The position numbers were made by a program, and so were the translations under genes. Shown piece by piece: positions 150 to 12,585 of a stretch of 64,000 bases of DNA (positions within the stretch are counted from its first letter, which is position 1; the number at the start of each line of letters is the position of its first letter). A model generated the notes under the pieces. That model saw only the letters and a program-made list of their open reading frames with translations, did no database searches and was not told where the DNA came from. The DNA is from a virus (taxonomy: Duplodnaviria; Caudoviricetes), in the IMG/VR virus record IMGVR_UViG_2510065065_000004, positions 32,001 through 96,000 of that record. One strand, given 5' to 3'.

Positions 150-1646
150 ATGGCGCTACCTCTTTCAAACATTGTCACTGTGCAACTCAATGGACAGCCC
201 CTGTCGGCCTCCCGTCGTGACTTTGGGAGGCTGGCCTTGTTCACCCCCGAAGTGGGCACCGTGTTTGTCGATACCAAAACACGGTTCATGGATGCCAGCA
301 CGCAGCAGCAGGTGGAACACGTCTTTGGCAGCTACTCCAAAACCGCAGCCGCCACCGGCCGCTTCTTTGCACAAAGCCCCCGCCCCAAACAGCTCATGGT
401 GGCGCGTTGGAATCGATTTAAACAACACATTGCCGCCTCCCCAACGACACTCACCTCCGGAGCGATTGCCCAGGCCCAGACGTGGTACAAGGGCGTGGAT
501 GACGGCTGCTTTTCCATCCGCATCTATGGTGTGGATGTCACCTTATCCAAGCTGAATTTCACCACGGCCACCTCCTTCTCCCAGGTGGCCGGTGTGTTGA
601 ATAAAGCACTGGATGAGTTTGGAGTGAATTGCCGATTTTTAAATGGCTGCTTTGAACTCTATGCTGCCGTGGCCGGAGGAAATCACGCCATTGGCTATGC
701 ACAGCAGCGCAGTCCTTCTGGCACCTATGTGGGGCATTGGCTGAAGCTTGAAGCCGATCAGGCCCGCCTGACCATCGGCAACAACGCTGACACCATCGAG
801 GCAGAGACACTGCCGGAGGCCTTTGCGGCCTTGCAGGCACTCACCCCAGGCTGGTATGCCGCTGCGGTGGCCGATGAGACATTGACAGACACGCAGATCC
901 GATCCGCCTCCGCCTGGATCCAGGCGGCAGACAAAAAAATCATGGGATGGACGACCCGCGAGGCGGCGCATTTGGACTTTAAAAAAACCAATGTGTTCAG
1001 ACAACTCAATGCATCGGGGCATGACCGTACCGTGGTGCTGTACGACACCACAGACCCCTACGCGGTGATCTCGTGGTTGGCCCGTGCCTTGTCGGTGAAC
1101 TTCAGCGCCAACAACGCCGCCCTGACCATGAAATTTAAGCACCTGCCCGGCGTTGCGGCAGATCAATTGACACAGACCCAGGTGGCCCAATGCCTGCGTT
1201 TAGGCATCAACTATTACGCCTACGTTGATGATGTGGCGATGGTGGCCGAAGGCACCTGTCTTGGCGGGCGCTTCTTTGATGAAGTCCATCTGCTGGATTG
1301 GCTGGTGGATGCGGTGCAAAAGGAGGTGTTTGCCGTCCTGCATCGCAGCCCGACGAAGGTGCCGCTGACGGATGCAGGCACCCACCTGCTGATCGCGGCC
1401 TGCAAAAAAGTCTGCCAAGAAGGGGTCCGTAACGGTGCCTTTGCCCCTGGCCTCTGGAACGGGGAAGCCTTCGGTGCGCTGGCCACGGGCGATTACCTGG
1501 AGGCTGGTTTTTATGTCTGGGCCGATTCAGTGGACACCTTATCGACCTCCGATCGCCAAGCCCGCCGGGCACCGCCACTTCAGATCGCCGTGAAGCTGGC
1601 CGGGGCCATCCATGCGGTGGACGTGCTCATCCATTTTGACCGATAA
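150..1646 (+). CDS. Tail sheath protein (DUF3383-like)
   Basis: 498 aa; FFAQSPRPK, MKFKHLPGV, LAGAIHAVDV motifs; precedes tube gene. Confidence 0.85.
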   Translation: MALPLSNIVTVQLNGQPLSASRRDFGRLALFTPEVGTVFVDTKTRFMDASTQQQVEHVFGSYSKTAAATGRFFAQSPRPKQLMVARWNRFKQHIAASPTTLTSGAIAQAQTWYKGVDDGCFSIRIYGVDVTLSKLNFTTATSFSQVAGVLNKALDEFGVNCRFLNGCFELYAAVAGGNHAIGYAQQRSPSGTYVGHWLKLEADQARLTIGNNADTIEAETLPEAFAALQALTPGWYAAAVADETLTDTQIRSASAWIQAADKKIMGWTTREAAHLDFKKTNVFRQLNASGHDRTVVLYDTTDPYAVISWLARALSVNFSANNAALTMKFKHLPGVAADQLTQTQVAQCLRLGINYYAYVDDVAMVAEGTCLGGRFFDEVHLLDWLVDAVQKEVFAVLHRSPTKVPLTDAGTHLLIAACKKVCQEGVRNGAFAPGLWNGEAFGALATGDYLEAGFYVWADSVDTLSTSDRQARRAPPLQIAVKLAGAIHAVDVLIHFDR

Positions 1647-1655
1647 AGGAATCCC

Positions 1656-2093
1656 ATGTCCGTCTTCGACCCCAAACAAGTGTCGGTGCTGCTCAATGGA
1701 ACCCAGATCAAAGACTGGGCCGATGGCACGGATGTCATCGACGCCAAACACAATGCTGATGCCGGTGCCTACACCATCGGGGCCAGCGGCACGGGCGTGT
1801 TTGTCGCCAACGCCGATCGTTCCGGCACCTTAACGTTAAAAATCAAACAGCACAGCGCTGACAACACCTTTCTGAGCAGGCGACTGGCCCAACAACGCGG
1901 CGCGATCCAGTCCTTCACCCCCTTCACCCTGGATATCCGTGACCTGTTGAATCAGGACGTGGTGACAGCCACCAACGGGTATTTCACGACGCCCCCCGGA
2001 TTTACCCGGGGCGCCGGACACAATCCGGAAACCTGGACACTGGTGTTTGAGGTCATGGAGATCACCCTAGAAAAAGGCTTTGGCAACACATGA
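1656..2093 (+). CDS. Tail tube protein (DUF3277-like)
   Basis: 145 aa, FDPKQVSV start, RBS AAGGA, position after sheath. Confidence 0.8.
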   Translation: MSVFDPKQVSVLLNGTQIKDWADGTDVIDAKHNADAGAYTIGASGTGVFVANADRSGTLTLKIKQHSADNTFLSRRLAQQRGAIQSFTPFTLDIRDLLNQDVVTATNGYFTTPPGFTRGAGHNPETWTLVFEVMEITLEKGFGNT

Positions 2094-2512
2094 ACAATGA
2101 ACATCGTTTTGAAATAGAGGGCCTCACCTATGTCATGACCCCGGCCAATGCGATGGCGGCGTGGCAATCGCTCAAACGCGCCGGGGTGCTGCTGCGGGGG
2201 ATGGATGCGGACGCCCTGGCTAACGCGCAAGGCGCCGCCTCCGTGGCCCTAGGGACGCTCCTAAGCCACCTGGGCGACCCTGCGGTCACCGAGATAGAAG
2301 CCCTGGTGTTTGAACAGACTGCGATCAAGATCCCCGAGGGCACCACCTACCGGCTCAGCAGCGACCGGCTCAATGAGCACTTCAACACCCGCCGCACCCA
2401 TCTGCTGCGCGTCTTGATGGAAGGAGTCAAGTATCAATACAGCGATTTTTTCGTTGGCGGCATGGCAGCCTTCCAGGACCTGATTCCCATGCCGCCCCCC
2501 ACGCAGGCATAA
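2090..2512 (+). CDS. Tail assembly chaperone
   Basis: 140 aa between tube and TMP; slippery T TTT TTC near the 3' end. Confidence 0.75.
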   Translation: MNNEHRFEIEGLTYVMTPANAMAAWQSLKRAGVLLRGMDADALANAQGAASVALGTLLSHLGDPAVTEIEALVFEQTAIKIPEGTTYRLSSDRLNEHFNTRRTHLLRVLMEGVKYQYSDFFVGGMAAFQDLIPMPPPTQA

Positions 2513-2703
2513 CCGATTGGTTCATCTGGGCACCGATCATGCGCGGCTATTGCGATCTTGAGCAACTGCGTACCGTGTACTCCCTCAGTGACCTGTGCGC
2601 CTTCCACACCGCGATGGTGGAATGGGATGCCCTCCAGCATGACGCGCTAACCCCCTGCGATGATTCTCGACGAATTCCTGATCCGCCTTGGCGCGGTCGC
2701 TGA
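2446..2703 (+). CDS. -1 frameshift extension of tail chaperone (gpGT-like)
   Basis: Heptamer T TTT TTC at 2446-2452; -1 frame open to TGA 2703 (..DWFIWAPIMRGYCDLEQLRTVYSLSDL..). Confidence 0.7.
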   Translation, partial: FFRWRHGSLPGPDSHAAPHAGITDWFIWAPIMRGYCDLEQLRTVYSLSDLCAFHTAMVEWDALQHDALTPCDDSRRIPDPPWRGR

Positions 2704-4549
2704 CACCTCAGGCTTCAGCACCTTTAGCACCGGCCTGACCCGCGTCACGGGCCTTGTGACGGTGGCCGCCGCCGCCATGGGCGGGGCGCTGGCGGGAATG
2801 AATCGCTTTGTCGGCAGTGCCCTGAGCGAACTGAATGCACTCACTAGCGCCAGCCAGCGCACCGGAGCCAGCCTGTCCTTCCTCCAGGAGCTGGGCTATG
2901 CGGCGCGTTTGAATGGCTCCTCTGTGGAGGCCTCGACCCGTTCTATTGAATCCTTGTCCCAAAAAATAGGCGAAGCCGCCAATGGGGTAGGGCGTGGGGC
3001 CATGCTGTTCCAGAAGCTGGGCTTGCAGGCCCGACAGGCCAATGGCTCCGTTAAATCTGTCGGCGACATGCTGGGCGAGGTGCAAGACAAGATCCGAGGC
3101 TTGTCGGCACCACAACAGCACTCCATCCTGGCCACCCTGGGCATGGATGCCACCATGCTGCAAACCTTGCGCCTGAGTCGTGAGGCGTTAAACGGTGTCT
3201 TCCAAGAGGCACAGGATCTAGGCGTCATCACCGCGGATGGTGCCGATACCGCGCTGGAGTATGGCGATGCGATGGAACGCCTGCGCGTGGTGATGGGGGC
3301 CTTACGGACCAATATCGCCATTGGGGTGGCACCGGCCTTCACCCGGCTGATTGAGCACTCCAAACACTGGTTGATTGCCAATAAAGAGCAACTGCGTGAT
3401 GGCATCGGCAAAGTCGTCAAGATCCTCATTGCAGCGGGCACCGCCGTATGGAACGTCACCCGTGCGGTGAACAGCGCGGTGAACCAGACCATTGGTTGGA
3501 AAGCGGCGCTGCTGGCCGTGGGCGCGGTGCTGGCCCGGGCCTTTGCACTGAACCCGGTCACCTGGCTGATTGCGGGGATTGTGGCCCTCGTGGCGTTGGT
3601 CGATGACTTCATGACCTATCTGGACGGCGGAGAGTCCTTGCTCGGTGCCTTCTGGGGTCCGCTGATCGCGGACGCCAAGCGCGCCAAGGCGGTGATTGAA
3701 CACCTTACGCCCGCACTCAAAGCCGTTGGCGTCCTCTTGGTAGGACTGGCCATCGGTCAGGTGGTGAGCAACATCGGCCGCCTCCTGGGTGCAGGCCGCA
3801 CTCTGGCGCTGTGGCTGGCGGGGCCGTTGGTGAAAACAATCCAGGCCGCCGCGCTGGCGTTGCGTGCCGCCTTTCTCTCCAACCCCATTGGACTGGTGAT
3901 TGCAAGCGTGGCCCTGCTGGCGTATGCGATCTATACGCATGTTGACAAAATCAAACACTGGGTGGGCACCGCCTGGCAGTGGTGCGCTCGCAAGGCAGAG
4001 GCCGCGCTAGGGGCCACCCGACAGGCAATGCAAGAGGTTGCCGCCGCCGCCAAGACCACCTGGGCCAGCATCAAGGACGCCTGTGCGCTGGCCTTTAGCC
4101 ACAGCATCGCCACCGCCGATCACGCCGTGAACCGCTTGCGGGCCGTGTTCAGCGCCATGGGCACCCGTATCAGCGCCGCCCTGAGCAGCGCTTTCAACAC
4201 CCTCATGAGGCTATGGGATCGCACCGTCGGGCGTATCGCCCAGGGGGCCGAGCGGATCAAAGGCTTGTTCCGAGCGATTGCTCCAACCCTGAAGCAGGCC
4301 GGTCGTGACACCCAAGACGTGGCGCAGCGCGTCAATGCACAGGTGCAGGCCGCCCAGACGACAGGCCGCCACGCCGCTGCTCAGGCCGCCACGCCCGCCC
4401 GTTCCCAGGCCAACGTCCATTCCCAACAGGATGTCAAGATCGATATCCACACCGCCGACCCGATCCTGGCCGGTCGCCAAGCCGCCGCCGACATCAACAG
4501 ACACCACCAGATGGCACTGCGCAATACCGGCAGTGCTGTGGCGTTTTGA
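2660..4549 (+). CDS. Tape measure protein
   Basis: 629 aa Ala/Leu-rich helical protein with NPVTW/NPIG repeats, after the chaperone. Confidence 0.85.
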   Translation: MILDEFLIRLGAVADTSGFSTFSTGLTRVTGLVTVAAAAMGGALAGMNRFVGSALSELNALTSASQRTGASLSFLQELGYAARLNGSSVEASTRSIESLSQKIGEAANGVGRGAMLFQKLGLQARQANGSVKSVGDMLGEVQDKIRGLSAPQQHSILATLGMDATMLQTLRLSREALNGVFQEAQDLGVITADGADTALEYGDAMERLRVVMGALRTNIAIGVAPAFTRLIEHSKHWLIANKEQLRDGIGKVVKILIAAGTAVWNVTRAVNSAVNQTIGWKAALLAVGAVLARAFALNPVTWLIAGIVALVALVDDFMTYLDGGESLLGAFWGPLIADAKRAKAVIEHLTPALKAVGVLLVGLAIGQVVSNIGRLLGAGRTLALWLAGPLVKTIQAAALALRAAFLSNPIGLVIASVALLAYAIYTHVDKIKHWVGTAWQWCARKAEAALGATRQAMQEVAAAAKTTWASIKDACALAFSHSIATADHAVNRLRAVFSAMGTRISAALSSAFNTLMRLWDRTVGRIAQGAERIKGLFRAIAPTLKQAGRDTQDVAQRVNAQVQAAQTTGRHAAAQAATPARSQANVHSQQDVKIDIHTADPILAGRQAAADINRHHQMALRNTGSAVAF

Positions 4550-4802
4550 GGGGATTGTTTAAGAAAACAGACTAAATAGTCTGCCAAACCAGAGTGCAAC
4601 AGTCGGTACGTGGGGTAGCCAACCTATCCCTATAGATAATGGCAAGCAGGCAGATGATCTCCGAAGAGGAAAGTGGTTATAACTATTTTGATATATGAAT
4701 ATAATGTTAATTAATGCGACTATAATCACAAATATGTGATATCAATAAATCTCCTCTATTTAAAAAATGCGTTTAGTTAATGACTGTAGCATTGGAGGAA
4801 AC

Positions 4803-4871
4803 ATGAATCGTGTGATTGGATATCGCAATCCTCGTATACAGGGATGTTTATCTAAACAGTTTAAGGAGTAA
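4803..4871 (+). CDS. Possible 22-aa leader ORF (MNRVIGYRNPRIQGCLSKQFKE)
   Basis: GGAGGA at 4794-4799; its stop abuts the RBS of the next gene. Confidence 0.3.
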   Translation: MNRVIGYRNPRIQGCLSKQFKE

Positions 4872-4875
4872 AAAG

Positions 4876-5052
4876 ATGAGAGAGTTGACCTTTGAAGAAG
4901 CTTTAAAAGTGGATGGTCAGGGGTGGGTTGGGGCCTTCTTGACTGGTGCTGGAACTGGTGCGTATGCCGGTGGTCTTATTGCTGAAGTACCAGGCGCTGT
5001 TGTGGGTACAGTGGTTGGTGGTGTCATAGGTGTTATTGCAAATCTATTTTGA
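4876..5052 (+). CDS. Class II bacteriocin/microcin-like precursor 1 (double-glycine-type leader)
   Basis: RBS AAGGAG 4863-4868; leader MRELTFEEALKVDG; Gly-rich hydrophobic GxxxG core. Confidence 0.75.
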   Translation: MRELTFEEALKVDGQGWVGAFLTGAGTGAYAGGLIAEVPGAVVGTVVGGVIGVIANLF

Positions 5053-5085
5053 TCCTTCTGTTACCACTTCAAGGAGTTAATTAAT

Positions 5086-5274
5086 ATGCGTGAACTTGAA
5101 ATCCATGAGATCGAATCTATCGGCGGTGCCGACATGCATTTGGTTGAAAATCTTGCCGCTGGTGTTACTGCTGGTGCGACTGCTGGCTACATATTCTTTG
5201 GCCCGGCAGGTGCGGCTCTGGGTACGGTAGGTGGTGTTGTAGTCGGTATGTGGACTTCGATATTAGGCGGTTAA
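5086..5274 (+). CDS. Class II bacteriocin/microcin-like precursor 2
   Basis: RBS AAGGAG 5071-5076; leader MRELEIHEIESIGGA resembles the microcin V leader; GPAGAALGTVGG core. Confidence 0.8.
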   Translation: MRELEIHEIESIGGADMHLVENLAAGVTAGATAGYIFFGPAGAALGTVGGVVVGMWTSILGG

Positions 5275-5278
5275 TGAT

Positions 5279-5449
5279 TTAGTTGGTTGGCCGGGTGATC
5301 GGCTCAATAATGAGCTTGTCCTCCTCACGGTGGATCAGAACACGATCACCCGGCAGCTCGAATTCAACGGGAATTCGTACCGCCTGGCTACGATTATTTC
5401 GGAATAGCTTCGCTTCCTTGGTACGTGATAACGGAGATGAAATTGGCAT
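5279..5449 (-). pseudogene. vapB: Truncated VapB/VagC (AbrB-type) antitoxin, no VapC
   Basis: AKLFRNNRSQAVRIPVEFELPGDRVLIHREEDKLIIEP swapped-hairpin motif; stops at 56 aa. Confidence 0.7.
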
Positions 5450-5464
5450 CGGCACAGTACCCAT

Positions 5465-5488
5465 TGCATATACATATTTGTATATGCA
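5465..5488. promoter_or_regulatory. Inverted-repeat operator upstream of vapB remnant
   Basis: TGCATATACA-TATT-TGTATATGCA, perfect 10-bp arms. Confidence 0.6.
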
Positions 5489-5501
5489 TGAATCTGCATG
5501 C

Positions 5502-5777
5502 CTAGCATTCTCGTCGGTAAATCTCACCCCGGTGACCAACACGCACCACAAGGACGCGCAAAACGCTATCTTGAATGGCGCAGACGACCCGGAAATCACC
5601 AACACGATAACGCCAAAAGCCGCCAAGTGGTCCGGTTAATGCTTTACCACTGCTGCGTGGGTTTTCTAGTCCGGCGATGCGCTCATCCATGAAATCGACA
5701 ATGCGCCGCGCCATGTGCTTGTCGAGCTTGCGTAACTGCTGCTTGGCCGTGTCGGTGTAATCAATCGTCCAGGCCAA
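5502..5777 (-). CDS. relE: RelE/StbE-family toxin
   Basis: KQLRKLDK..GKALTGPLGGFWRYRVGDFRVVC..RVGHRGEIYR. Confidence 0.9.
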   Translation of the reverse strand: MAWTIDYTDTAKQQLRKLDKHMARRIVDFMDERIAGLENPRSSGKALTGPLGGFWRYRVGDFRVVCAIQDSVLRVLVVRVGHRGEIYRREC

Positions 5778-5988
5778 GCGTTTTTCTCACGTCGGCAGCA
5801 GAATGCACCTGTTCTTGTCCATGACGGACACGCTCCAACACATCGGCAGCAAGGTAGTAATCCTCCATTTCCTCAATGCCATGCTCAATGATTTCACGCA
5901 GGTAGTAAGCCTTTGTGCGTCCCGTATGGGAGGCAAGATAGTTCAGCCTTTGCTCCATTTCAGGAGAGAGGCGAATCGAAGTCGCCAT
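5761..5988 (-). CDS. RHH antitoxin (RelB/CopG-like)
   Basis: MATSIRLSPEMEQRLNYLASHTGRTKAYYLRE; overlaps toxin start. Confidence 0.85.
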   Translation of the reverse strand: MATSIRLSPEMEQRLNYLASHTGRTKAYYLREIIEHGIEEMEDYYLAADVLERVRHGQEQVHSAADVRKTLGLDD

Positions 5989-6100
5989 GTCAAAACCCCC
6001 ACTTAGATGCATGTATTCATTGTAGCGCAGATGAGATCGCCCAATTGGCATCTCCAAAGCTGACTCCCTGCTTCACCGAAACAGGTTCCCCCCCCCCCTC

Positions 6101-6871
6101 ATGATCGCCCTGACCCACCGCCACATCGGCACCGTCACCCTGGATGCGGTGCTTGAAGAAACGCACCACGCCGAGCTGCGCATCACTGAAAACCCCGTAG
6201 AGTCTGGCGCGATGATTGGTGATCACGCCGTCCTGATGCCGCAAACCGTCACCATCGCTGGCATTGTGGTGGACTACCAACCTCAGCGCAGCCCAGCCCC
6301 TGCCGCAGAGGAGCACGGGGCCGAGCCATTGCGTGTCCTGACCGATCGCGTGCCTTTCCCCACGGACCTGATGCCCTTCACCGCTCAGGCCCTGCGTGTG
6401 GCCCAACGTGAACTGTCCTCGGTGATCGGCCACGCCACTGCACCGCAGAGCGACGGCCAGCACGCCGTGCGCCCTTTGGCCGACTGGCTTCCTGATGACC
6501 AGCCCATCACTTCTGGTGATGACGCTGCCACCACAGGCCGCATTGCCCAGGTGTACACCGCCCTACGGAAGCTACAACGCAGCGGCCAGACCCTGGAGGT
6601 ACACACCGGCGTCCAGACGTATCAAGACATGTTGATTCTTTCCATTGCGGCCAGACAAACCCAGGATGGTTCCATTGAATTGGTGCTGACCGTGCGAGAA
6701 CTATTCATCGTCAAGACAACATCCATTTCTGGTGTCTCATTGCCTGCCCCCAAACGCGGTAGAGCCTCCGCCCAAGGCGCGGCGCAACGCCACAGCGGCC
6801 AGACCCACCCTAAGCAGGCCGACACCGAGAAAAACCGCTCCCTGCTGCGTCAGATGTCTGGACTGTTCTGA
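6101..6871 (+). CDS. Baseplate/tail-tube initiator (Dit-like)
   Basis: LDAVLEETH..ITENPVESGA..DHA motif; first tail gene after the TMP moron. Confidence 0.7.
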   Translation: MIALTHRHIGTVTLDAVLEETHHAELRITENPVESGAMIGDHAVLMPQTVTIAGIVVDYQPQRSPAPAAEEHGAEPLRVLTDRVPFPTDLMPFTAQALRVAQRELSSVIGHATAPQSDGQHAVRPLADWLPDDQPITSGDDAATTGRIAQVYTALRKLQRSGQTLEVHTGVQTYQDMLILSIAARQTQDGSIELVLTVRELFIVKTTSISGVSLPAPKRGRASAQGAAQRHSGQTHPKQADTEKNRSLLRQMSGLF

Positions 6872-7188
6872 TGCGACAGATTTCCGTGGATAGCAGCCCC
6901 TACCAAACCCAATCCTTTCAGATGGCCGGGGACGCCTTACGCTTGATTCTGCGCTGGAATCCGGTGCCCTGCTGCTGGTCGATGGACCTGTACACCGCGA
7001 CCCTAGATCAGCCCGTGGTGCAAGGCGTCCCCTTGATGGTGGGCGTCCCCCTGCTGTGGCGGCGTCCTGTCGATTACTTCTTTTGGCTGACAGATGAAAG
7101 TGGTTTGGAGATGGACCCGATGCGCCAACAGGACCTAGGCGAACGCTGCTTGCTGTTTGTCGGACTGAAACGCGAGGTTCGCCCATGA
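6871..7188 (+). CDS. Small baseplate (plug-like) protein
   Basis: 105 aa, LRWN..CWSMDL..GVPL, coupled to neighbours. Confidence 0.6.
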   Translation: MRQISVDSSPYQTQSFQMAGDALRLILRWNPVPCCWSMDLYTATLDQPVVQGVPLMVGVPLLWRRPVDYFFWLTDESGLEMDPMRQQDLGERCLLFVGLKREVRP

Positions 7189-8015
7189 AACAGTTTGGCC
7201 GCCAGTATCGCCTGGAGCTGGGGTCCAGCCACGATGGCATTGCCATCGACACCCTGCGCATCGCCTTTGACATCCGCAAGACCAGCGACTCCACCCCCAA
7301 CCCCGCCAAGATCACCGTATGGAACCTCAACCGCGATCACCTGAGCTTGCTCACCAGCCGACAGTACAACCGGGTCCGGCTGCTGGCCGGTTACGCAGAG
7401 CTGCGCCTGTTATTTGTCGGTGACATTATCAAGCCTGCTGTGCGGCGTGATGGGACGGATTACGTCATCGAACTGGAATGCGGCGATGGCGATCACGACT
7501 ACCGCAATGCCCACGTTTCCTTATCGTTGGCCGCAGGGGCGACCGATGCCCAGGTGCTGCGGGCACTGAGTACCTCCATGCCGTCTATCCGGCTGGGACC
7601 TATCCAGATGCAGGGACAACGTGGCCTGACCCGCGGCAAAGTGCTCTCAGGCAATACACGGACCCTGCTGGATGCACTGGCTAAAAATCATGGCGCGGAC
7701 TGGTCCATCCAGGATGGCGCACTGATGTTACTGCCTGCCGATACCGTCCTAGCCGGTGACGCCGTGCTGCTGTCCCAAAGCAGCGGCATGATGGGCTCCC
7801 CCGAAGTGACCGATGATGGATTAAAAATCACCACCTTGCTCAATCCGGCCTTGCGCATCGGCGGCCTGGTGCGCGTGGACTCCCTCATCCCCATCTACAA
7901 CGGCGACTACAAAATCACCTCACTGCATGACATGGGCGATGTGATGGCCGAAGCCTGGTTCAGTACGGTGACCTGTGTCGGCGGTGATTTTCAGAACGTG
8001 AGGCCGTCTGTATGA
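7185..8015 (+). CDS. Baseplate hub protein
   Basis: 276 aa; ITVWNL, LAGY, WSIQDG, LLNP motifs. Confidence 0.75.
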   Translation: MKQFGRQYRLELGSSHDGIAIDTLRIAFDIRKTSDSTPNPAKITVWNLNRDHLSLLTSRQYNRVRLLAGYAELRLLFVGDIIKPAVRRDGTDYVIELECGDGDHDYRNAHVSLSLAAGATDAQVLRALSTSMPSIRLGPIQMQGQRGLTRGKVLSGNTRTLLDALAKNHGADWSIQDGALMLLPADTVLAGDAVLLSQSSGMMGSPEVTDDGLKITTLLNPALRIGGLVRVDSLIPIYNGDYKITSLHDMGDVMAEAWFSTVTCVGGDFQNVRPSV

Positions 8016-8652
8016 GTCTGGATGACTGGAATAACGCCTCCCTCAGTGCCGTACTGCAACGCAGTACCGAAGCGCTGGCCCAGCGCCTGCGTGTGGCCTT
8101 GCCTGGGCAGATCGTCCGCTTTAACCCAGTCACCCAAACGGCGACCGTACAGCCGTTGATCCAGCAGAAGAGGAACGATGGCTCCCTTCAGCCCTTACCG
8201 GTGCTCCAGGATGTGCCGGTGTCCTTCCCGCGTGGCGGTGGCTTTGTGATGACCTTTCCCGTGGCTGCTGGGGATGAATGTGAACTCATCTTCCAAGATC
8301 GCTGCATTGATGCCTGGTTCCAGTCAGGCCGTGCGTCCGAGCCTGTGGACTATCGCCTGCATGACCTGTCGGATGCCGTTGCCTGCGTGGGAATTGCTTC
8401 CTTACCCAATGTCATTCCGACGTTTGAAATGGACGGCGTGGTACTGCGCACCCTGGATGGCCGCGCCTCATTCAAACTGGATACCCAAGGCGTGATCACA
8501 CTGCGTGGAACCAAGCTGGTTCTTGATCTTCCCGTGGAATTCACCCAAGGCATCCGTGGTCATGGCGACGTCGTATCAAACGGTATCCGCCTGGAGACAC
8601 ACACCCACGACAACGTAGAGAACGGCCAGGACAGACAGGCCCGGCCCAATGA
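8012..8652 (+). CDS. Baseplate spike (Gp138-like) with apparent 1-bp deletion near 8626
   Basis: VALPGQIV, FPRGGGF, HTH metal tip; adding one C gives NGPGQTGPAQ* with ATGA overlap at 8649-8652; as sequenced it reads to 8833. Confidence 0.75.
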
Positions 8653-9002
8653 GAGTGCGCCGCGTGGACAGCCAAGGGGATTGGACCTTCGGCAACGGGC
8701 GCGGCAACTATGCGGCCGCCAGCGATTGCGTGGCACAGCGGGTGAAGACACGGCTGCGCTCCTTCCGTGGCAACTGGTTCCTGGATCTGGACCACGGCCT
8801 GCCGTGGCTGGACCTGATGGAGCGGCCTGCTGACCTGGTACACCTGGAGCGCGAGGTCAAGCGCACCATCCTCACCACCGAAGGCGTGCGCCGCCTCACC
8901 GCCTTCTCAATGGCCTTGGACGCGGATACCCGCACCTTCACCATCCACGTCACCTTGCTGGATGCGTACCAACAGGCGATGACCGTTAGTACCACGCTGT
9001 GA
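8649..9002 (+). CDS. Baseplate wedge protein (gp46/gp25-like)
   Basis: GDWTFGNG, GNWFLDLDHGLPW, TEGV motifs. Confidence 0.75.
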   Translation: MRVRRVDSQGDWTFGNGRGNYAAASDCVAQRVKTRLRSFRGNWFLDLDHGLPWLDLMERPADLVHLEREVKRTILTTEGVRRLTAFSMALDADTRTFTIHVTLLDAYQQAMTVSTTL

Positions 9003-9012
9003 GGGGATGCGT

Positions 9013-9318
9013 TTAACGCATAGAGGAAGGAGTGAATGACATCCGTAAACCAAGCGCCTTAGCCACTTTTAAGATGGTTGAGAAGCTTGGGTTGCCGTCG
9101 TTAGAGAGTGCCTTGTCTAGTCCTTGCCTGGACATACCAACGTCACGAGCAAGCTGACTTAAATTACGAGCACGAGCGACAGCACCAAGTGCCCGTGCAA
9201 TAAAAGCAGGATTATCCCTACCACCTTCTTCCATGACGGCTTCCATATAAGCCGCAATATCTTCTTCGGTTTTGAGGTAGTCAGCGGTGTCGTATCGACT
9301 AAACGTCTCATTATTCAT
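9013..9318 (-). CDS. HTH addiction-module antitoxin (HigA-like)
   Basis: DTADYLKTEEDIAAY..ARALGAVARAR..GNPSFSTILKV. Confidence 0.88.
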   Translation of the reverse strand: MNNETFSRYDTADYLKTEEDIAAYMEAVMEEGGRDNPAFIARALGAVARARNLSQLARDVGMSRQGLDKALSNDGNPSFSTILKVAKALGLRMSFTPSSMR

Positions 9319-9617
9319 GGCTCATCCTTCCACAGTGCAGCCAGTGCCTTAGCCTGCTCTATATCTCGTACTTGTGACGATTTATCGCCACCGCAAAGCA
9401 AGAGAATCAGTACTGCACCATGCTTCATAAAATAGATCCGATATCCGGGCCCATGGTCGATCCTCATTTCTGAGATGCCAGCACCCACAGGCTTCACGTC
9501 GCCGGGATTGCCAAGTGCAAGCCGATCAAGACGCGCTTGAATTCTGGCGGCTGCTTTGCGGTCACGTAAGCTGTTTATCCAAGCATCAAAAGTGCTGGTT
9601 TTGATGAGTTCGACCAT
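9315..9617 (-). CDS. RelE/HigB-like addiction-module toxin
   Basis: GNPGDVKPVGAGISEMRIDHGPGYRIYF..LLCGGDKSSQ; toxin-first order. Confidence 0.88.
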   Translation of the reverse strand: MVELIKTSTFDAWINSLRDRKAAARIQARLDRLALGNPGDVKPVGAGISEMRIDHGPGYRIYFMKHGAVLILLLCGGDKSSQVRDIEQAKALAALWKDEP

Positions 9618-9618
9618 G

Positions 9619-9664
9619 TGCAAACTATAGTTTGCATGTCGTTAAGTATCAACCACAGTTGATA
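9619..9664. promoter_or_regulatory. Two palindromic TA autoregulatory operators
   Basis: TGCAAACTATAGTTTGCA (9619-9636) and TATCAAC-CACA-GTTGATA (9647-9664). Confidence 0.6.
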
Positions 9665-9715
9665 ACGGAAATGAAATGAACGACCACACCCGCCACCTTG
9701 GCGATTGAGCAAACC

Positions 9716-10861
9716 ATGGGAAAAGTCACCACCACCGGATACGAAGCCGAGCGGCTGGATACGATTATTGCTCGCTTGCAGGAAGGCTTCCGTTCGATTT
9801 ACGGCAACGATATCAACGTAGACCCAGATAGCCCCGATGGACAGTTGATTGGGCTGATTGCACAGATCAAAGCCGATCTAGAAGAACTGGGCACGGACAT
9901 CCACCGGCAACTGGACCCGGATTACGCCAGCGGCGCGTGGCTAGAACAACGCGTGGCCTATGCGGGCCTCACCCGCAGGCGAGCCAGCTACAGCTACTTA
10001 CGCAATGTCACCTTGAGCGGCACACCCGATGCCCCGATCCCGGCAGGTTATGTTGTTTCCGATCCCAATCGCTGCCGCTGGCAGCTCGTGTCATCGGTGC
10101 GCCTGGATGCCACTGGCCACGCCCATGCAGACTTTCGCAGCGACGCCTTAGGCCGTGTTGACGTCCCCGCACACACGGCCCTGACCATTGAAACCGTGGC
10201 CCTGGGTTGGGACTCGGCCCTCACGACCGAGGACGCCGAAGCAGGGGCAGAAGAAGAGTCCGATGCGGCGCTGCGCGCCCGCTTCTTTAAAAGTCGTGCC
10301 AAGACATCCACCAACAATGCTGACAGCATCCAGGCCACGCTCTGGGGGCTACCCGACGTGCGCCACGTCGTCTGCTTAGAAAACTTCACCGATACCGTGG
10401 ATGCTGCGGGAGTCCCCGCCCACGGCATTAACGTCATTGTGGAGGGGGGCCGGGATGACGCCATTGCTGAAGTGATCTATCACCATAAAACGCTCGGGAC
10501 AAACATGCGTGGCGCGGTGCGGGTACAGATTAAAAACACACACGGCCAACCTAGAGACATCTATTTTGACCGTCCAACGATGGTCCGTTGCGCCGCCCGC
10601 ATCGAAGTAGAGCGCGATAGCAGCACGTCCGGTATTGATACCCATGCGATCAAACAGGCATTGGCCGCGCGCTCCTTTCTGATTGGCGAGCACGTCCACC
10701 GCAGCCGACTGTATACCCAAATTAATAGCGTCCCAGGCTTTTGGGTGACATCGCTGATGATCGGTCAAGCAGGCCAAGCGTTGTCTGAGCAGAATATTCC
10801 TATCGACGTGCGAAGCATGGCGCGCTTTGCAATGAACGATCTCCAGGTCATCGTGCGATGA
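9716..10861 (+). CDS. Baseplate J/gp47-like protein
   Basis: DSPDGQLIG, GAEEESDAALRARF, VIVEGG motifs. Confidence 0.85.
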   Translation: MGKVTTTGYEAERLDTIIARLQEGFRSIYGNDINVDPDSPDGQLIGLIAQIKADLEELGTDIHRQLDPDYASGAWLEQRVAYAGLTRRRASYSYLRNVTLSGTPDAPIPAGYVVSDPNRCRWQLVSSVRLDATGHAHADFRSDALGRVDVPAHTALTIETVALGWDSALTTEDAEAGAEEESDAALRARFFKSRAKTSTNNADSIQATLWGLPDVRHVVCLENFTDTVDAAGVPAHGINVIVEGGRDDAIAEVIYHHKTLGTNMRGAVRVQIKNTHGQPRDIYFDRPTMVRCAARIEVERDSSTSGIDTHAIKQALAARSFLIGEHVHRSRLYTQINSVPGFWVTSLMIGQAGQALSEQNIPIDVRSMARFAMNDLQVIVR

Positions 10862-11418
10862 GCTATGCGGACCTGTTGATCTGGCAATACAAGGGCCAAC
10901 CCAGGGCCACCGCCACCGCTGCATTGATCAGCGATGCCTTCGGCACCACCTGGAACGGCTTAGCCGATCTGCGCCAGACATTGGATATCGAACGCGCCAC
11001 CGGAACACACCTTGACCTCATCGGCCAGCATGTCGGTCAATCCCGTGTCTTATCCAGTGAACGCCCCCCCGTGCGGCACGATCTGAGCTTGGACGATGCA
11101 GCCTACCGCTTTCTCATCAAGTGCCGGATTGCCAAAAATTACATGACCGGCACCGCGCCCAATATGGAGCAAGTGCTTGACTTCATCTTTCCCGGCAGCG
11201 CCGCAGTACTGGACCACTACGACATGAGCTACACCGTGTTTGTCAGTACTGCAATGATTTCAGACGTCATCCGCCATGCCATCACCACGCTGGACATCCT
11301 GCCTCGTCCAGCAGGCGTGCGGGTTCGCTACAACCTTGTGACGCATCTGCCCTTCGGATACGAGCGCAGCAACCGTAACTACACACACGCCGCCTTTGGC
11401 GACCCACCCGAGCGATAA
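10858..11418 (+). CDS. Baseplate wedge protein (DUF2612-like)
   Basis: YADLLIWQYKGQPRA, ATGTHLDLIG, LPRPAGV. Confidence 0.8.
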   Translation: MSYADLLIWQYKGQPRATATAALISDAFGTTWNGLADLRQTLDIERATGTHLDLIGQHVGQSRVLSSERPPVRHDLSLDDAAYRFLIKCRIAKNYMTGTAPNMEQVLDFIFPGSAAVLDHYDMSYTVFVSTAMISDVIRHAITTLDILPRPAGVRVRYNLVTHLPFGYERSNRNYTHAAFGDPPER

Positions 11419-11421
11419 CCC

Positions 11422-12585
11422 ATGACAGAACACTACTTCCGTACCCCCTTTGCCCACCAAGGGGACATGATCCACGTGCCCGAAGCCAAAGACAGTCACG
11501 GCTTTGTGAGCTACACCCAAGGATGGGGGCCGGACTATCAAAAAGATTTAACCAAGGAGCCGACGGCTAAACCCGTAGAACGCACTGTTATGAATGCCGT
11601 GCTGCACGCCATCACCACGGTGCTCAAAGGCTACCAAGAATACGGCAGCCCTGAATTCATCACCGCCGAACAGAATAACGGCACGCCATTTTCATACATG
11701 CGTGGGGTGATCGTCCGATACCGCCCGGATCACGCAAGCCGTTACGGGCTGTATCTGTCCACGGCTGACAACAACACCGATACACCGCTACAGAATGAAC
11801 CCAACCGCTGGACGGCACTCTCCAGGTACGAGCCTGGACAGATTGTCTACACCGCAGGCAAACGCGCCTTACCCGGCACCCTGCTGTGCGATGGCCGCGC
11901 TGTATCGCGGGCCATGTACCCACGCCTATTTGAGGAAATCAACACCAGCTATGGTGCCGGTGATGGTGTCACCACCTTCAACATTCCCAATTTTCTTGAA
12001 GGCACCGTCGGCGTTCACACCGCCGACCCTGCCTTGGTCGGCACCTTCACCAGCGGGCAGGTGATCTCCCATGCGCACACCGCAACCGCCGAGGAGGGCG
12101 GTACGCATCTTCATCCGGTCACCGTCCATCCTGCAGGCCGCCATACACACCCTGCCAGCGCAGCAGCGGCGGGCAATCATCTACACCAGGCATGGACCGA
12201 CGAACAAGGATTACACCAGCATACAGGCAGCACCTCTTGGGACGGTGACCACGCGCATATCTTGGGTTCTTTCAGAGCGATCTATGCCTCTGGAAGAGAC
12301 ATGGGTTTTTATGAGCAAAATCAAGGCAAAGTCACGACCAATGTCACTGGAGGGCATCTACACAGATTCACCACCGATGCAAACGGCAAGCATGCCCACA
12401 ATATCGGTATGCAGGCCGCAGGGCTTCATGTGCATGACATTGCTGTAACAGCAGAGGCAGATCATGCCCACGCCGCCACAGCCGAATCGGCGGGCAGGCA
12501 TGGTCACACCGTGTCCATTGATCGCTTTGGAGAACACCACAACCTGCCCGCAGGCCTGCGCGTCATGGCATGTATCGCGTATTAA
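11422..12585 (+). CDS. Tail fibre with collar domain and His-x-His repeat needle
   Basis: LLCDGRAVSRAMYPRLF..YGAGDGVTTFNIPN collar; 11 HxH motifs. Confidence 0.88.
   Translation: MTEHYFRTPFAHQGDMIHVPEAKDSHGFVSYTQGWGPDYQKDLTKEPTAKPVERTVMNAVLHAITTVLKGYQEYGSPEFITAEQNNGTPFSYMRGVIVRYRPDHASRYGLYLSTADNNTDTPLQNEPNRWTALSRYEPGQIVYTAGKRALPGTLLCDGRAVSRAMYPRLFEEINTSYGAGDGVTTFNIPNFLEGTVGVHTADPALVGTFTSGQVISHAHTATAEEGGTHLHPVTVHPAGRHTHPASAAAAGNHLHQAWTDEQGLHQHTGSTSWDGDHAHILGSFRAIYASGRDMGFYEQNQGKVTTNVTGGHLHRFTTDANGKHAHNIGMQAAGLHVHDIAVTAEADHAHAATAESAGRHGHTVSIDRFGEHHNLPAGLRVMACIAY

Follow-up and report, generated by a model that had tools for sequence, protein, structure and literature searches.

The peptide cassette

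The stretch of DNA analysed here (the window, 64,000 nucleotides) comprises bases 32001-96000 of the 129-kb provirus record IMGVR_UViG_2510065065_000004 in IMG/VR. The host is Xylella fastidiosa, and the first of the two peptides discussed below clusters with XF_1693 of that species. Genes 150-12585 of the window form a myovirus-type tail module (sheath, tube, chaperone, tape measure, Dit-like protein, baseplate and tail collar), and between the tape-measure and Dit-like genes lies an AT-rich island with two short genes, here called alpha and beta, each of which has an AAGGAG ribosome binding site (RBS) and encodes a double-glycine-type leader followed by a Gly-rich core. Both are genuine, conserved genes with transcript levels far higher than those of the adjacent tail genes. 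In an original prediction, made from the letters of the sequence, the island had been read as a cassette for a pair of bacteriocin-like peptides. Its position after the tape-measure gene, the two open reading frames (ORFs), the RBSs, the leaders and the cores are all present as described, and the ORFs are conserved. The description of the island as a peptide cassette was nevertheless incomplete, since the island also holds a vapB antitoxin remnant and an intact relBE module (5502-6057, minus strand).

The GC fraction is 0.633 in the tape-measure gene, only 0.424 over 4633-5274 and again high, at 0.617, in the Dit-like gene (6101-6871); in the region upstream of alpha (4633-4875) it is 0.321. 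The features of the cassette and its left junction are as follows.

4550..4632, no strand: left junction segment, X. fastidiosa prophage allele, directly after the tape-measure stop codon
4633..4875, plus strand: AT-rich upstream region, likely promoter and 5' leader (about 140 nt) of the alpha-beta transcript; conserved in Xylella taiwanensis
4721..4726, plus strand: TATAAT, a likely -10 box as read from the sequence
4863..4868, plus strand: AAGGAG RBS of alpha, 7 nt before the ATG at 4876; conserved in X. taiwanensis
4876..5052, plus strand: alpha peptide gene, 58 aa (ATG 4876, stop 5050-5052); 15-aa leader (..V-D-G-Q) and 43-aa glycine-zipper core
5071..5076, plus strand: AAGGAG RBS of beta, 9 nt before the ATG at 5086; conserved in X. 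taiwanensis
5086..5274, plus strand: beta peptide gene, 62 aa (stop 5272-5274); 15-aa leader ending G-A and 47-aa Gly/Ala-rich core

Beta starts 33 nt downstream of alpha, in the same orientation and with a leader of its own; the reading frame of alpha is open also from a TTG at 4816. The TATAAT aligns near a CATAAT of X. taiwanensis and lies 12-40 nt upstream of the jump in RNA depth described below, and the cassette appears to have its own promoter. A consensus sigma-70 scan called no full plus-strand promoter in the cassette, and an Rfam scan of 4400-6200 gave no match. Three other calls were rejected: a terminator placed inside alpha by the consensus scan, which is implausible; a plus-strand ORF at 4767-4871 (34 aa), whose frame is broken by indels in X. 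taiwanensis; and a minus-strand ORF at 4559-4729 (56 aa), which has no counterpart in the ORF list of the sister prophage locus L107.

Leaders and cores

Double-glycine leaders follow a consensus of about 15-18 residues in which hydrophobic residues occupy positions -12, -7 and -4 and glycine occupies -2, the leader ending in G-G, G-A or G-S. The alpha leader is MRELTFEEALKVDGQ and the beta leader is MRELEIHEIESIGGA. The latter agrees with the consensus at L4, I9, I12, G14 and A15, with a canonical G-A ending, and the former at L4, A9, V12 and G14; the -1 residue of alpha is Gln, not Gly, Ala or Ser. Since G14 is invariant and V/I12 falls at -4, cleavage is placed after residue 15 in both peptides, which would put the cut after G-A in beta and after an unusual G-Q in alpha. 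Among sequences picked by eye from the family-profile matches described in the next section, G14 is found in all 26 of the alpha type and is nearly invariant in the 30 of the beta type. Gln or Glu stands at position 15 in 10 of the 26 alpha-type peptides, some of them encoded beside their own C39 exporter, a pattern which suggests either that this exporter clade accepts G-Q or G-E or that the cut site of these peptides differs.

Beyond residue 15 the alpha core comprises 43 residues, including 12 Gly, 7 Ala and a single charged residue, and has a small-xxx-small spacing in which small residues recur at every fourth position from 16 to 48. The beta core comprises 47 residues with 11 Gly and 8 Ala, and the small-xxx-small positions run from 26 to 58. 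Helix-packing motifs of the GxxxG type are present in both peptides, with G28, G32, G40 and G44 invariant across both types. Cys is absent from both, and the C-termini are ..IANLF in alpha and ..TSILGG in beta. Siderophore-microcins (the class IIb microcins E492, H47 and M) carry a Ser-rich C-terminal tail for siderophore attachment; no such tail is found at the C-terminus of either peptide.

Family assignment and exporter-linked relatives

Comparison with profile libraries places the peptides near the microcin V family. Alpha matches Pfam MccV (PF17508) from residue 1 at E 0.0014 with 19.6 bits, and beta matches it from residue 1 at E 3.6e-4 with 21.5 bits, both under the curated cut-off of 27; alpha also matches Bacteriocin_IIc (PF10439) at E 0.0061 with 17 bits (cut-off 27.1), and beta has a weak match to the NCBIfam model E492_microcin at E 0.017 with 15.7 bits (cut-off 50). 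At E<=0.01, MccV is matched by 17 of the 26 alpha-type and 25 of the 30 beta-type relatives, and Bacteriocin_IIc by 14 and 22 of them, respectively. The suggested microcin V-type leader and family, for which a profile search had been proposed as a check, are thus upheld by the relatives, but the scores of the window's own peptides remain below threshold. The atlas features nearest to those of beta are the Bacteriocin_IIc, Blp and microcin H47 clusters (score 0.92-0.93).

In the protein library, 395 entries match a profile of the two peptide types at E<=1e-3, and 89 of the best 150 have at most 110 aa; the rest of these 150 are long Gly-rich proteins, whose matches are probably compositional. 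Compared with solved structures, the profiles of both types found no relative. No match was obtained in a nucleotide search of 4550-5290 in phage and plasmid collections or in a tblastn search of beta against 50,697 phage records, and searches for related loci (beta in viral contigs, the peptide alignment in genome contigs) gave no confirmed locus, probably because the peptides are too short and too low in complexity for the tblastn check.

Close relatives of both peptides occur in Xylella only, at 98-100% identity in X. fastidiosa, several genomes of which carry near-identical copies, together with an 82% variant; against X. taiwanensis the amino acid identity is 79% for alpha and 61-63% for beta. 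A protein 100% identical to alpha falls into the same 90% cluster as XF_1693 of X. fastidiosa 9a5c, which is annotated from an upstream start. Homologues of alpha bear the NCBI name "Blp family class II bacteriocin" and both peptides the UniRef name "Bacteriocin"; X. taiwanensis beta is a "hypothetical protein" at NCBI.

More distant relatives were sought with a degenerate form of the leader in genome contigs. This search returned 64 loci, with no Xylella record among them, most of which encode unrelated proteins that begin MRELTFEE or MSELTFEE; short double-glycine peptides beginning MRELTFEE were found in Lysobacter, Luteimonas, Pseudohongiella, Robiginitomaculum and others. In three Robiginitomaculum records (L011, L035 and L045) a leader of the form MRELTFEEI.TV.GG is followed by tandem short repeats, PIDIEV/PIDIEL.

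The GTDB family of the Luteimonas genome, Xanthomonadaceae, was then sampled through 400 scored genomes. Matches at E<=0.01 occur in 25 of these, and an adjacent alpha-then-beta pair occurs in six besides the window (G014, G213, G368, G001, G287 and G095), as expected if the two peptides form a pair, which is how they had been read. In this family the alpha type has 58-68 aa, a leader ending ..V-x-G-[Q/E/G] and usually a tail ..LYxL, and the beta type has 62-64 aa, a leader ending ..V-D-G-[A/S/G] and the motif GGPxGAxAGAxSGGxHG. A class-level sample of 400 further genomes contained no full-length match, and its two matches at E<=1e-5 lie inside long Gly-rich ORFs.

All five non-Xylella genomes with a pair encode, within 3 kb of it, an ABC exporter with a C39 peptidase domain (PF03412) and an HlyD adaptor. 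In three of the five, HlyD is followed by alpha, beta, a short ORF with a pair of hydrophobic segments and then the exporter, and this small membrane ORF is conserved between beta and the exporter in four of the five exporter-linked loci. By its position and form it is a likely immunity gene, of the kind that the original prediction proposed to look for downstream in homologous loci. The remaining locus, that of G095 (L095), has a pair with canonical G-G leaders, divergent to its exporter, and the candidate immunity ORF was not found there (best E 0.76 in the genome). In G213 (L092:5404-7505) two overlapping ORFs, of 465 and 275 aa, take the place of a single exporter gene beside the pair, which may reflect a frameshift. 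As far as gene content can tell, these loci document a conserved family of two-peptide, exporter-linked, putative bacteriocins in Xanthomonadaceae.

Frames as short as 58 and 62 aa, taken from a mechanical ORF list, could in principle be chance openings in AT-rich non-coding filler. This explanation has practically no probability left, since it is refuted by conservation: homologues with the same length, order, start and stop are present in X. taiwanensis and in five other genomes, and a chance frame would not account for the 395 proteins that match the family profile.

Comparison with Xylella taiwanensis

Genome G014 encodes peptides and an exporter letter-identical to proteins named X. taiwanensis. 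The neighbours of its pair are housekeeping genes (ThiF-family, Crp/Clp-like, SpeD, COQ7 and one read as rplM); the pair is not in a prophage and adjoins no vapB. The window and the X. taiwanensis DNA share a 621-bp BLAST match that runs from 4633 to 5233 with 76.5% identity, and in the alignment the beta stop codons coincide and homology ends there. Column identity reaches 82% in alpha, 77% in beta and 65-68% in the region upstream of them, and drops to 31-37% outside (37% in the left junction, 4550..4632). These limits define a mobile unit of about 640 bp, consisting of the upstream region, alpha and beta.

Both ORFs, both RBSs and both leaders are intact in the two species, at a dS of about 0.33-0.36. 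Selection was estimated from this one species pair and from few codons, and within that scope dN/dS is 0.41 for the whole of alpha and 0.80 for the whole of beta. The leaders, with 15 codons each, have dN 0.057-0.059 and dS 0.25-0.28 (dN/dS about 0.2) and are the most constrained part of both peptides. In beta, residues 16-46 have dN 0.16 and dS 0.35, and in residues 47-62 dN rises to 0.90 at the same dS of 0.35; a tail with dN above dS fits either diversification or decay, and more generally the cores are either diversifying or partly relaxed. The Xylella beta lacks a His that is present in 26 of the 30 beta-type sequences, and the Xylella alpha lacks a Tyr that is present in 17 of the 26 alpha-type sequences.

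These values bear on the explanation that a once complete bacteriocin operon has left the cassette behind as a decaying orphan, which has a strong promoter but no function and hitch-hikes in a recombination hot spot of the prophage. Decay would be in keeping with the loss of the exporter, the adaptor and the candidate immunity gene, with the values for beta and its tail, with the loss of the conserved His and Tyr, and with the fact that the junction is a patchwork of cargo remnants, the truncated vapB included. It accords poorly with ORFs, RBSs and leaders that have stayed intact in two species at such a dS, with the lower dN/dS of alpha and of the leaders, with the near-identical copies in several X. 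fastidiosa genomes, and with the strong expression described in the next section, which would be costly for useless hydrophobic peptides. On balance decay is considered unlikely.

Expression

Expression was assessed from the k-mer depth of RNA-seq contigs of a single run, X1; such contigs give no strand and no transcript ends, and the depths that follow are rough levels. Three raw-read runs yielded 0 reads and constitute no test of expression. The contigs of X1 cover the cassette, for which expression had been made a condition of the original prediction. The tape-measure gene has a depth of 0-117, and relBE and the Dit-like gene one of 22-64; within the cassette the values are 2011-5342 at 4683-4943, 990 at 4944-5030 and 2995-3671 at 5031-5204, about 10-100 times those of the flanking tail genes. 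A contig at 4523-4767 with a depth of 46 joins the end of the tape-measure gene to the island, and the next contig, at 4738-4919, has a depth of 5341; another spans 5001-5141, from the end of alpha to the start of beta. The depth over the shared leader probably sums several alleles. The contigs match the window up to 4919 and then diverge, and other contigs rejoin it at 5001; an additional alpha variant, distinct from that of the window immediately beyond the leader, is apparently expressed in the X1 strain.

A contig of depth 1230 over the vapB remnant (5280-5577) has 12 mismatches to the window and flanks that differ on both sides. It therefore probably derives from a paralogous vapB locus, and its depth is not assignable to the remnant in the window.

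A related gene has been noted in the literature. For X. fastidiosa subsp. pauca De Donno, the accessible text of PMC11885251 describes two prophage-embedded copies (B9J09_RS06345 and RS06930) of a "Blp family class II bacteriocin" gene without ABC or immunity genes; its mRNA reportedly ranked behind only rnpB and ssrA in abundance in vitro. From the part of the article available, the De Donno gene is probably not alpha itself but the sister allele with an 84-85-aa core (the L107 type, below), a match made by length alone (258 bp, 85 aa).

A cargo hot spot with alternative cores

The cassette occupies a site at which related prophages carry other genes. The features that surround it are as follows.

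2660..4549, plus strand: tail tape-measure gene (stop 4547-4549); phrog_9388 E 5.5e-283, phrog_8125 (tape measure) E 6.6e-95; GC 0.633
5279..5452, minus strand: C-terminally truncated vapB antitoxin remnant; MazE_antitoxin E 2.7e-9; matches VapB model positions 1-42 of 73
5502..5777, minus strand: RelE/ParE-family toxin gene, a neighbouring moron outside the peptide cassette; ParE_toxin E 2.9e-17, RelE_StbE E 1.7e-9
5761..6057, minus strand: RelB-family antitoxin gene; NF048017 E 1.4e-29, the model covering ORF residues 29-98
6101..6871, plus strand: Dit-like tail/baseplate gene, right border of the cargo site; Pfam Dit_like E 1.4e-25, phrog_817 E 1.6e-46; GC 0.617

The tape-measure gene also has tblastn matches to annotated tape-measure proteins of Aaphi23-like phages. 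Since the NF048017 model covers only residues 29-98 of the RelB-family ORF, the true start of that gene is probably internal.

In IMG/VR, 20 loci (L101-L120) carry a Dit-like gene that is 90-96% identical to that of the window. Three of the 20 lack the tape-measure side, and the others hold at least five alternative cargos at the junction between the tape-measure and Dit-like genes:

relBE only: five loci (L103, L104, L110, L115 and, partial, L113)
intact vapBC: two loci (L105 and L106)
HI1420-type antidote gene: three loci (L112, L114 and L116)
Gp49/HTH_37 pair: four loci (seen in L108 and L109, and probably present in L117 and L119 to judge from the BLAST pattern)
the left junction, promoter and leader of the window with a different core: three loci (L101, L102 and L107)

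At the same site L105 and L106 have an intact 90-aa VapB and a PIN-domain VapC; compared with these sister prophages the remnant in the window keeps 57 of 90 aa and vapC is absent, so the vapB gene had rightly been called truncated. The island of the window is thus a patchwork of peptide cassette, vapB remnant and relBE. The cassette has the properties of a prophage moron: a foreign GC fraction (0.42 compared with 0.62-0.63), a position between conserved phage genes, variable presence and its own expression. A second moron of low GC fraction (0.47-0.50) lies on the minus strand between baseplate genes at 9013-9623; it consists of a toxin gene (phrog_3445, E 1.4e-35) and a transcriptional repressor gene (phrog_4268, E 2.9e-30) and is probably a HigBA-like pair.

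The last group of loci shares the first part of the cassette with the window. L101 (4397-4651), L102 (same) and L107 (4336-4593) encode the leader MRELTFEEALKVDGQGW followed, after residue 17, by an unrelated core of 84-85 aa which has no Pfam match, and no beta gene is present in the three loci. The left junction segment (4550..4632) is 100% identical in L101 and L102; in L107, whose allele has a length of 258 bp, left junction, promoter and leader are 95% identical to those of the window. An exact search of the viral collection with the leader DNA found these three loci only. A modular build of this sort is typical of bacteriocin loci and speaks for the family assignment of the cassette.

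A possible, though less probable, reading of this pattern is that the junction is a plug-in weapon slot, in which a constant promoter and leader are recombined with interchangeable toxin cores (the alpha-beta pair, the unrelated 84-85-aa core and at least one further alpha variant in the RNA contigs) that would all depend on a single host exporter and bring no immunity of their own. If this tentative view were correct, different prophage alleles would give their lysogens different phage-delivered, strain-specific peptides, and self-protection would be achieved not through a classical cognate immunity protein but by means such as receptor loss or host cross-protection.

A possible exporter in trans and the missing immunity gene

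No match to the C39 exporter domain PF03412 was found in the 129-kb provirus record, in line with the original prediction that the prophage has no exporter of its own, and searches for HlyD or an exporter remnant gave nothing significant in the window or around the X. taiwanensis pair. Genome G014 has one canonical exporter locus, about 1 Mb from its pair, in which genes for HlyD and for three double-glycine peptides precede that of a 703-aa exporter with an SECG motif in its N-terminus. The leader pattern of the three peptides, M[RH]EL..QE[IV].NV.GG, is similar to that of alpha and beta; the locus spans L097:4765-10418, and the peptides themselves have 77-96 aa and no Pfam match. A second, degenerate C39-like ABC gene with HlyD, at L098:5978-9579 of the same genome, looks like an RTX-type secretion pair.

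In several subspecies of X. fastidiosa there are exporter proteins of 707 aa with a PF03412 domain whose identity to the X. taiwanensis exporter is 93% across the full length of the query, and XF1220 is listed as cvaB and as detected in expression in the accessible text of PMC3036931. The Xylella exporter is 68.6% identical to the exporter beside the Luteimonas pair, and the HlyD adaptors are 51-60% identical. By this evidence X. fastidiosa encodes an intact exporter of the same clade elsewhere on its chromosome, in agreement with the host C39 exporter that had been postulated, and export of alpha and beta in trans through it is plausible.

The immunity gene is a different matter. The candidate immunity ORF of the exporter-linked loci has no match in the window (best E 3.4) and none in the provirus record or the G014 genome (best E 0.376). 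Its lack had been attributed to the junction with the truncated vapB, an attribution that fails: in X. taiwanensis, where no vapB lies beside it, the cassette also ends at the beta stop codon and the small ORF is absent, so the lack belongs to the Xylella cassette itself. With no immunity homologue found, the producer itself should suffer from a toxin of full activity. This gap is the chief weakness of the weapon explanation and the best argument in favour of its rivals.

One such rival holds that the peptides are directed at the membranes of the producing cells, where they would act in autolysis, DNA release, biofilm behaviour or phage release rather than in the killing of competitors. It would explain why neither the record nor X. 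taiwanensis has an immunity homologue, why residues conserved in the exporter-linked relatives have been lost, and why transcripts are very abundant, both in run X1 and, as far as the accessible text goes, in PMC11885251. A precedent exists in Neisseria gonorrhoeae, in which bacteriocin-like peptides of an island have no antibacterial activity and drive autolysis according to the accessible text of PMC11798529; those peptides are cationic, however, and the present ones are nearly uncharged glycine zippers. A self-directed function is also hard to reconcile with leaders that are the most conserved part of the peptides and stay unchanged when the core is swapped, which argues that export and processing still matter, and with the existence of an export-competent host transporter. 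It is regarded as unlikely.

Double-glycine leaders serve signalling peptides too, and the absence of an immunity gene would also be natural if alpha and beta were exported pheromone-like signals and not toxins. Signalling is mentioned for the colicin V-like peptides of X. fastidiosa in the accessible text of PMC11885251. Cores of 43-47 aa that are glycine-zipper, almost uncharged and membrane-seeking nevertheless resemble those of pore-forming bacteriocin families, and no sensor kinase or response regulator stands beside the pair in the annotated loci, so that a signalling role appears quite improbable.

Comparison with known systems

A close counterpart is microcin V (colicin V, CvaC), a class IIa microcin of Escherichia coli that is exported by CvaA/CvaB/TolC and has the immunity protein Cvi. 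Alpha and beta share with it the 15-residue double-glycine leader pattern and the character of a small, Gly-rich, hydrophobic and unmodified-looking peptide; MccV is their best family match, and their relatives lie between an HlyD-type adaptor and a C39 ABC exporter. They differ in being two peptides with MccV scores under the cut-off, in lacking Cys and so any disulfide, in having neither a cvi-like immunity gene nor an exporter in cis, and in being carried by a prophage instead of a plasmid or island.

The two-peptide (class IIb) bacteriocins of Gram-positive bacteria, for example lactococcin G and plantaricins EF and JK, resemble the present pair in their adjacent genes, double-glycine leaders on each peptide, GxxxG-type helical cores and conserved gene order. 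Here, by contrast, the hosts are Gram-negative, the exporter is a three-part system of the HlyD type, the Xylella pair has no shared immunity gene, and the interdependence of the two peptides is putative.

X. fastidiosa itself has chromosomal colicin V-like genes, cvaC-1/2/3 with cvi, which according to the accessible text of PMC11885251 have very high transcript levels in the same host and presumably use the same exporter. The cvaC-type leaders (M-R/H-E-L..E/Q..V.GG), as seen in the X. taiwanensis counterpart, are like those of alpha and beta. Unlike alpha and beta, which are phage cargo without such partners, the cvaC genes sit with an immunity gene in the description available from PMC11885251; their X. 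taiwanensis counterparts lie between HlyD and the exporter and have cores that match no Pfam family and bear no relation to alpha and beta. The De Donno prophage gene of that article is alike in lying in a prophage region without ABC or immunity genes and in being a top transcript; it differs in that, from the text available and by length alone, it probably has a single 85-aa core and not an alpha-beta pair. The Nap island of Neisseria, likened here by description only and from the accessible text of PMC11798529, also encodes bacteriocin-like peptides on horizontally acquired DNA whose role may not be the killing of competitors; the Nap peptides are cationic and do not lie at a prophage tail-gene junction.

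Interpretation and significance

The best explanation of the cassette (about 4633-5274), as judged from sequence comparison, is that it represents a stripped-down copy of a two-peptide, double-glycine-leader bacteriocin locus, reduced in X. fastidiosa to promoter, alpha and beta and carried as a moron at a cargo hot spot of a myovirus-type prophage. Its function, on the account that is favoured here by a modest degree, would be that of an exported two-peptide microcin-like weapon which uses the exporter of the host. In a lysogen the chromosomal C39 exporter, working with its HlyD partner and an outer-membrane channel, would recognise the leaders of the pre-peptides. Cleavage after residue 15 would then release the 43-aa and 47-aa glycine-zipper peptides, and the two might insert together into the membranes of competitors and so favour the lysogen.

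Several of the results given above weigh against this account: the sub-threshold scores of both peptides for MccV and of alpha for Bacteriocin_IIc, the Gln at -1 in the alpha leader, the lack of strand and transcript ends in the single RNA run, the absence of a C39 exporter from the provirus record, the absence of the candidate immunity ORF from window, record and G014 genome with the self-harm that this would entail, the divergence of the beta tail, and the loss of the otherwise conserved His and Tyr.

Part of this material is already public, namely the family annotation of alpha and the remark on a prophage-embedded allele in the accessible text of one 2025 paper (PMC11885251). A literature search found no paper naming XF1693; no mention of Xylella, prophage, orphan or two-peptide was found in the accessible text of the microcin survey PMC12219008 (Nat Commun 2025), and none of Xylella or prophage in that of the plant-associated microcin screen PMC13174018. 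New here are the recognition of beta as a partner, the exporter-linked operon of ancestral type in relatives, the precise boundaries of the cassette, the absence of the candidate immunity gene from an X. taiwanensis-like genome and from the provirus record, and the swapping of cores behind a fixed leader at a prophage cargo site.

Orphan double-glycine peptides and exporters that act in trans are known, and the cassette introduces no new principle; it suggests one way in which such bacteriocin loci may break up, with the structural genes moving alone and using an exporter in trans. Strains and subspecies of X. fastidiosa, a crop pathogen confined to the xylem, compete in plants and in insect vectors, and prophages are a main source of the differences between strains. 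A phage-carried, highly transcribed, presumably exporter-dependent and core-swapping cassette could therefore help to explain strain exclusion and the spread of particular prophages.

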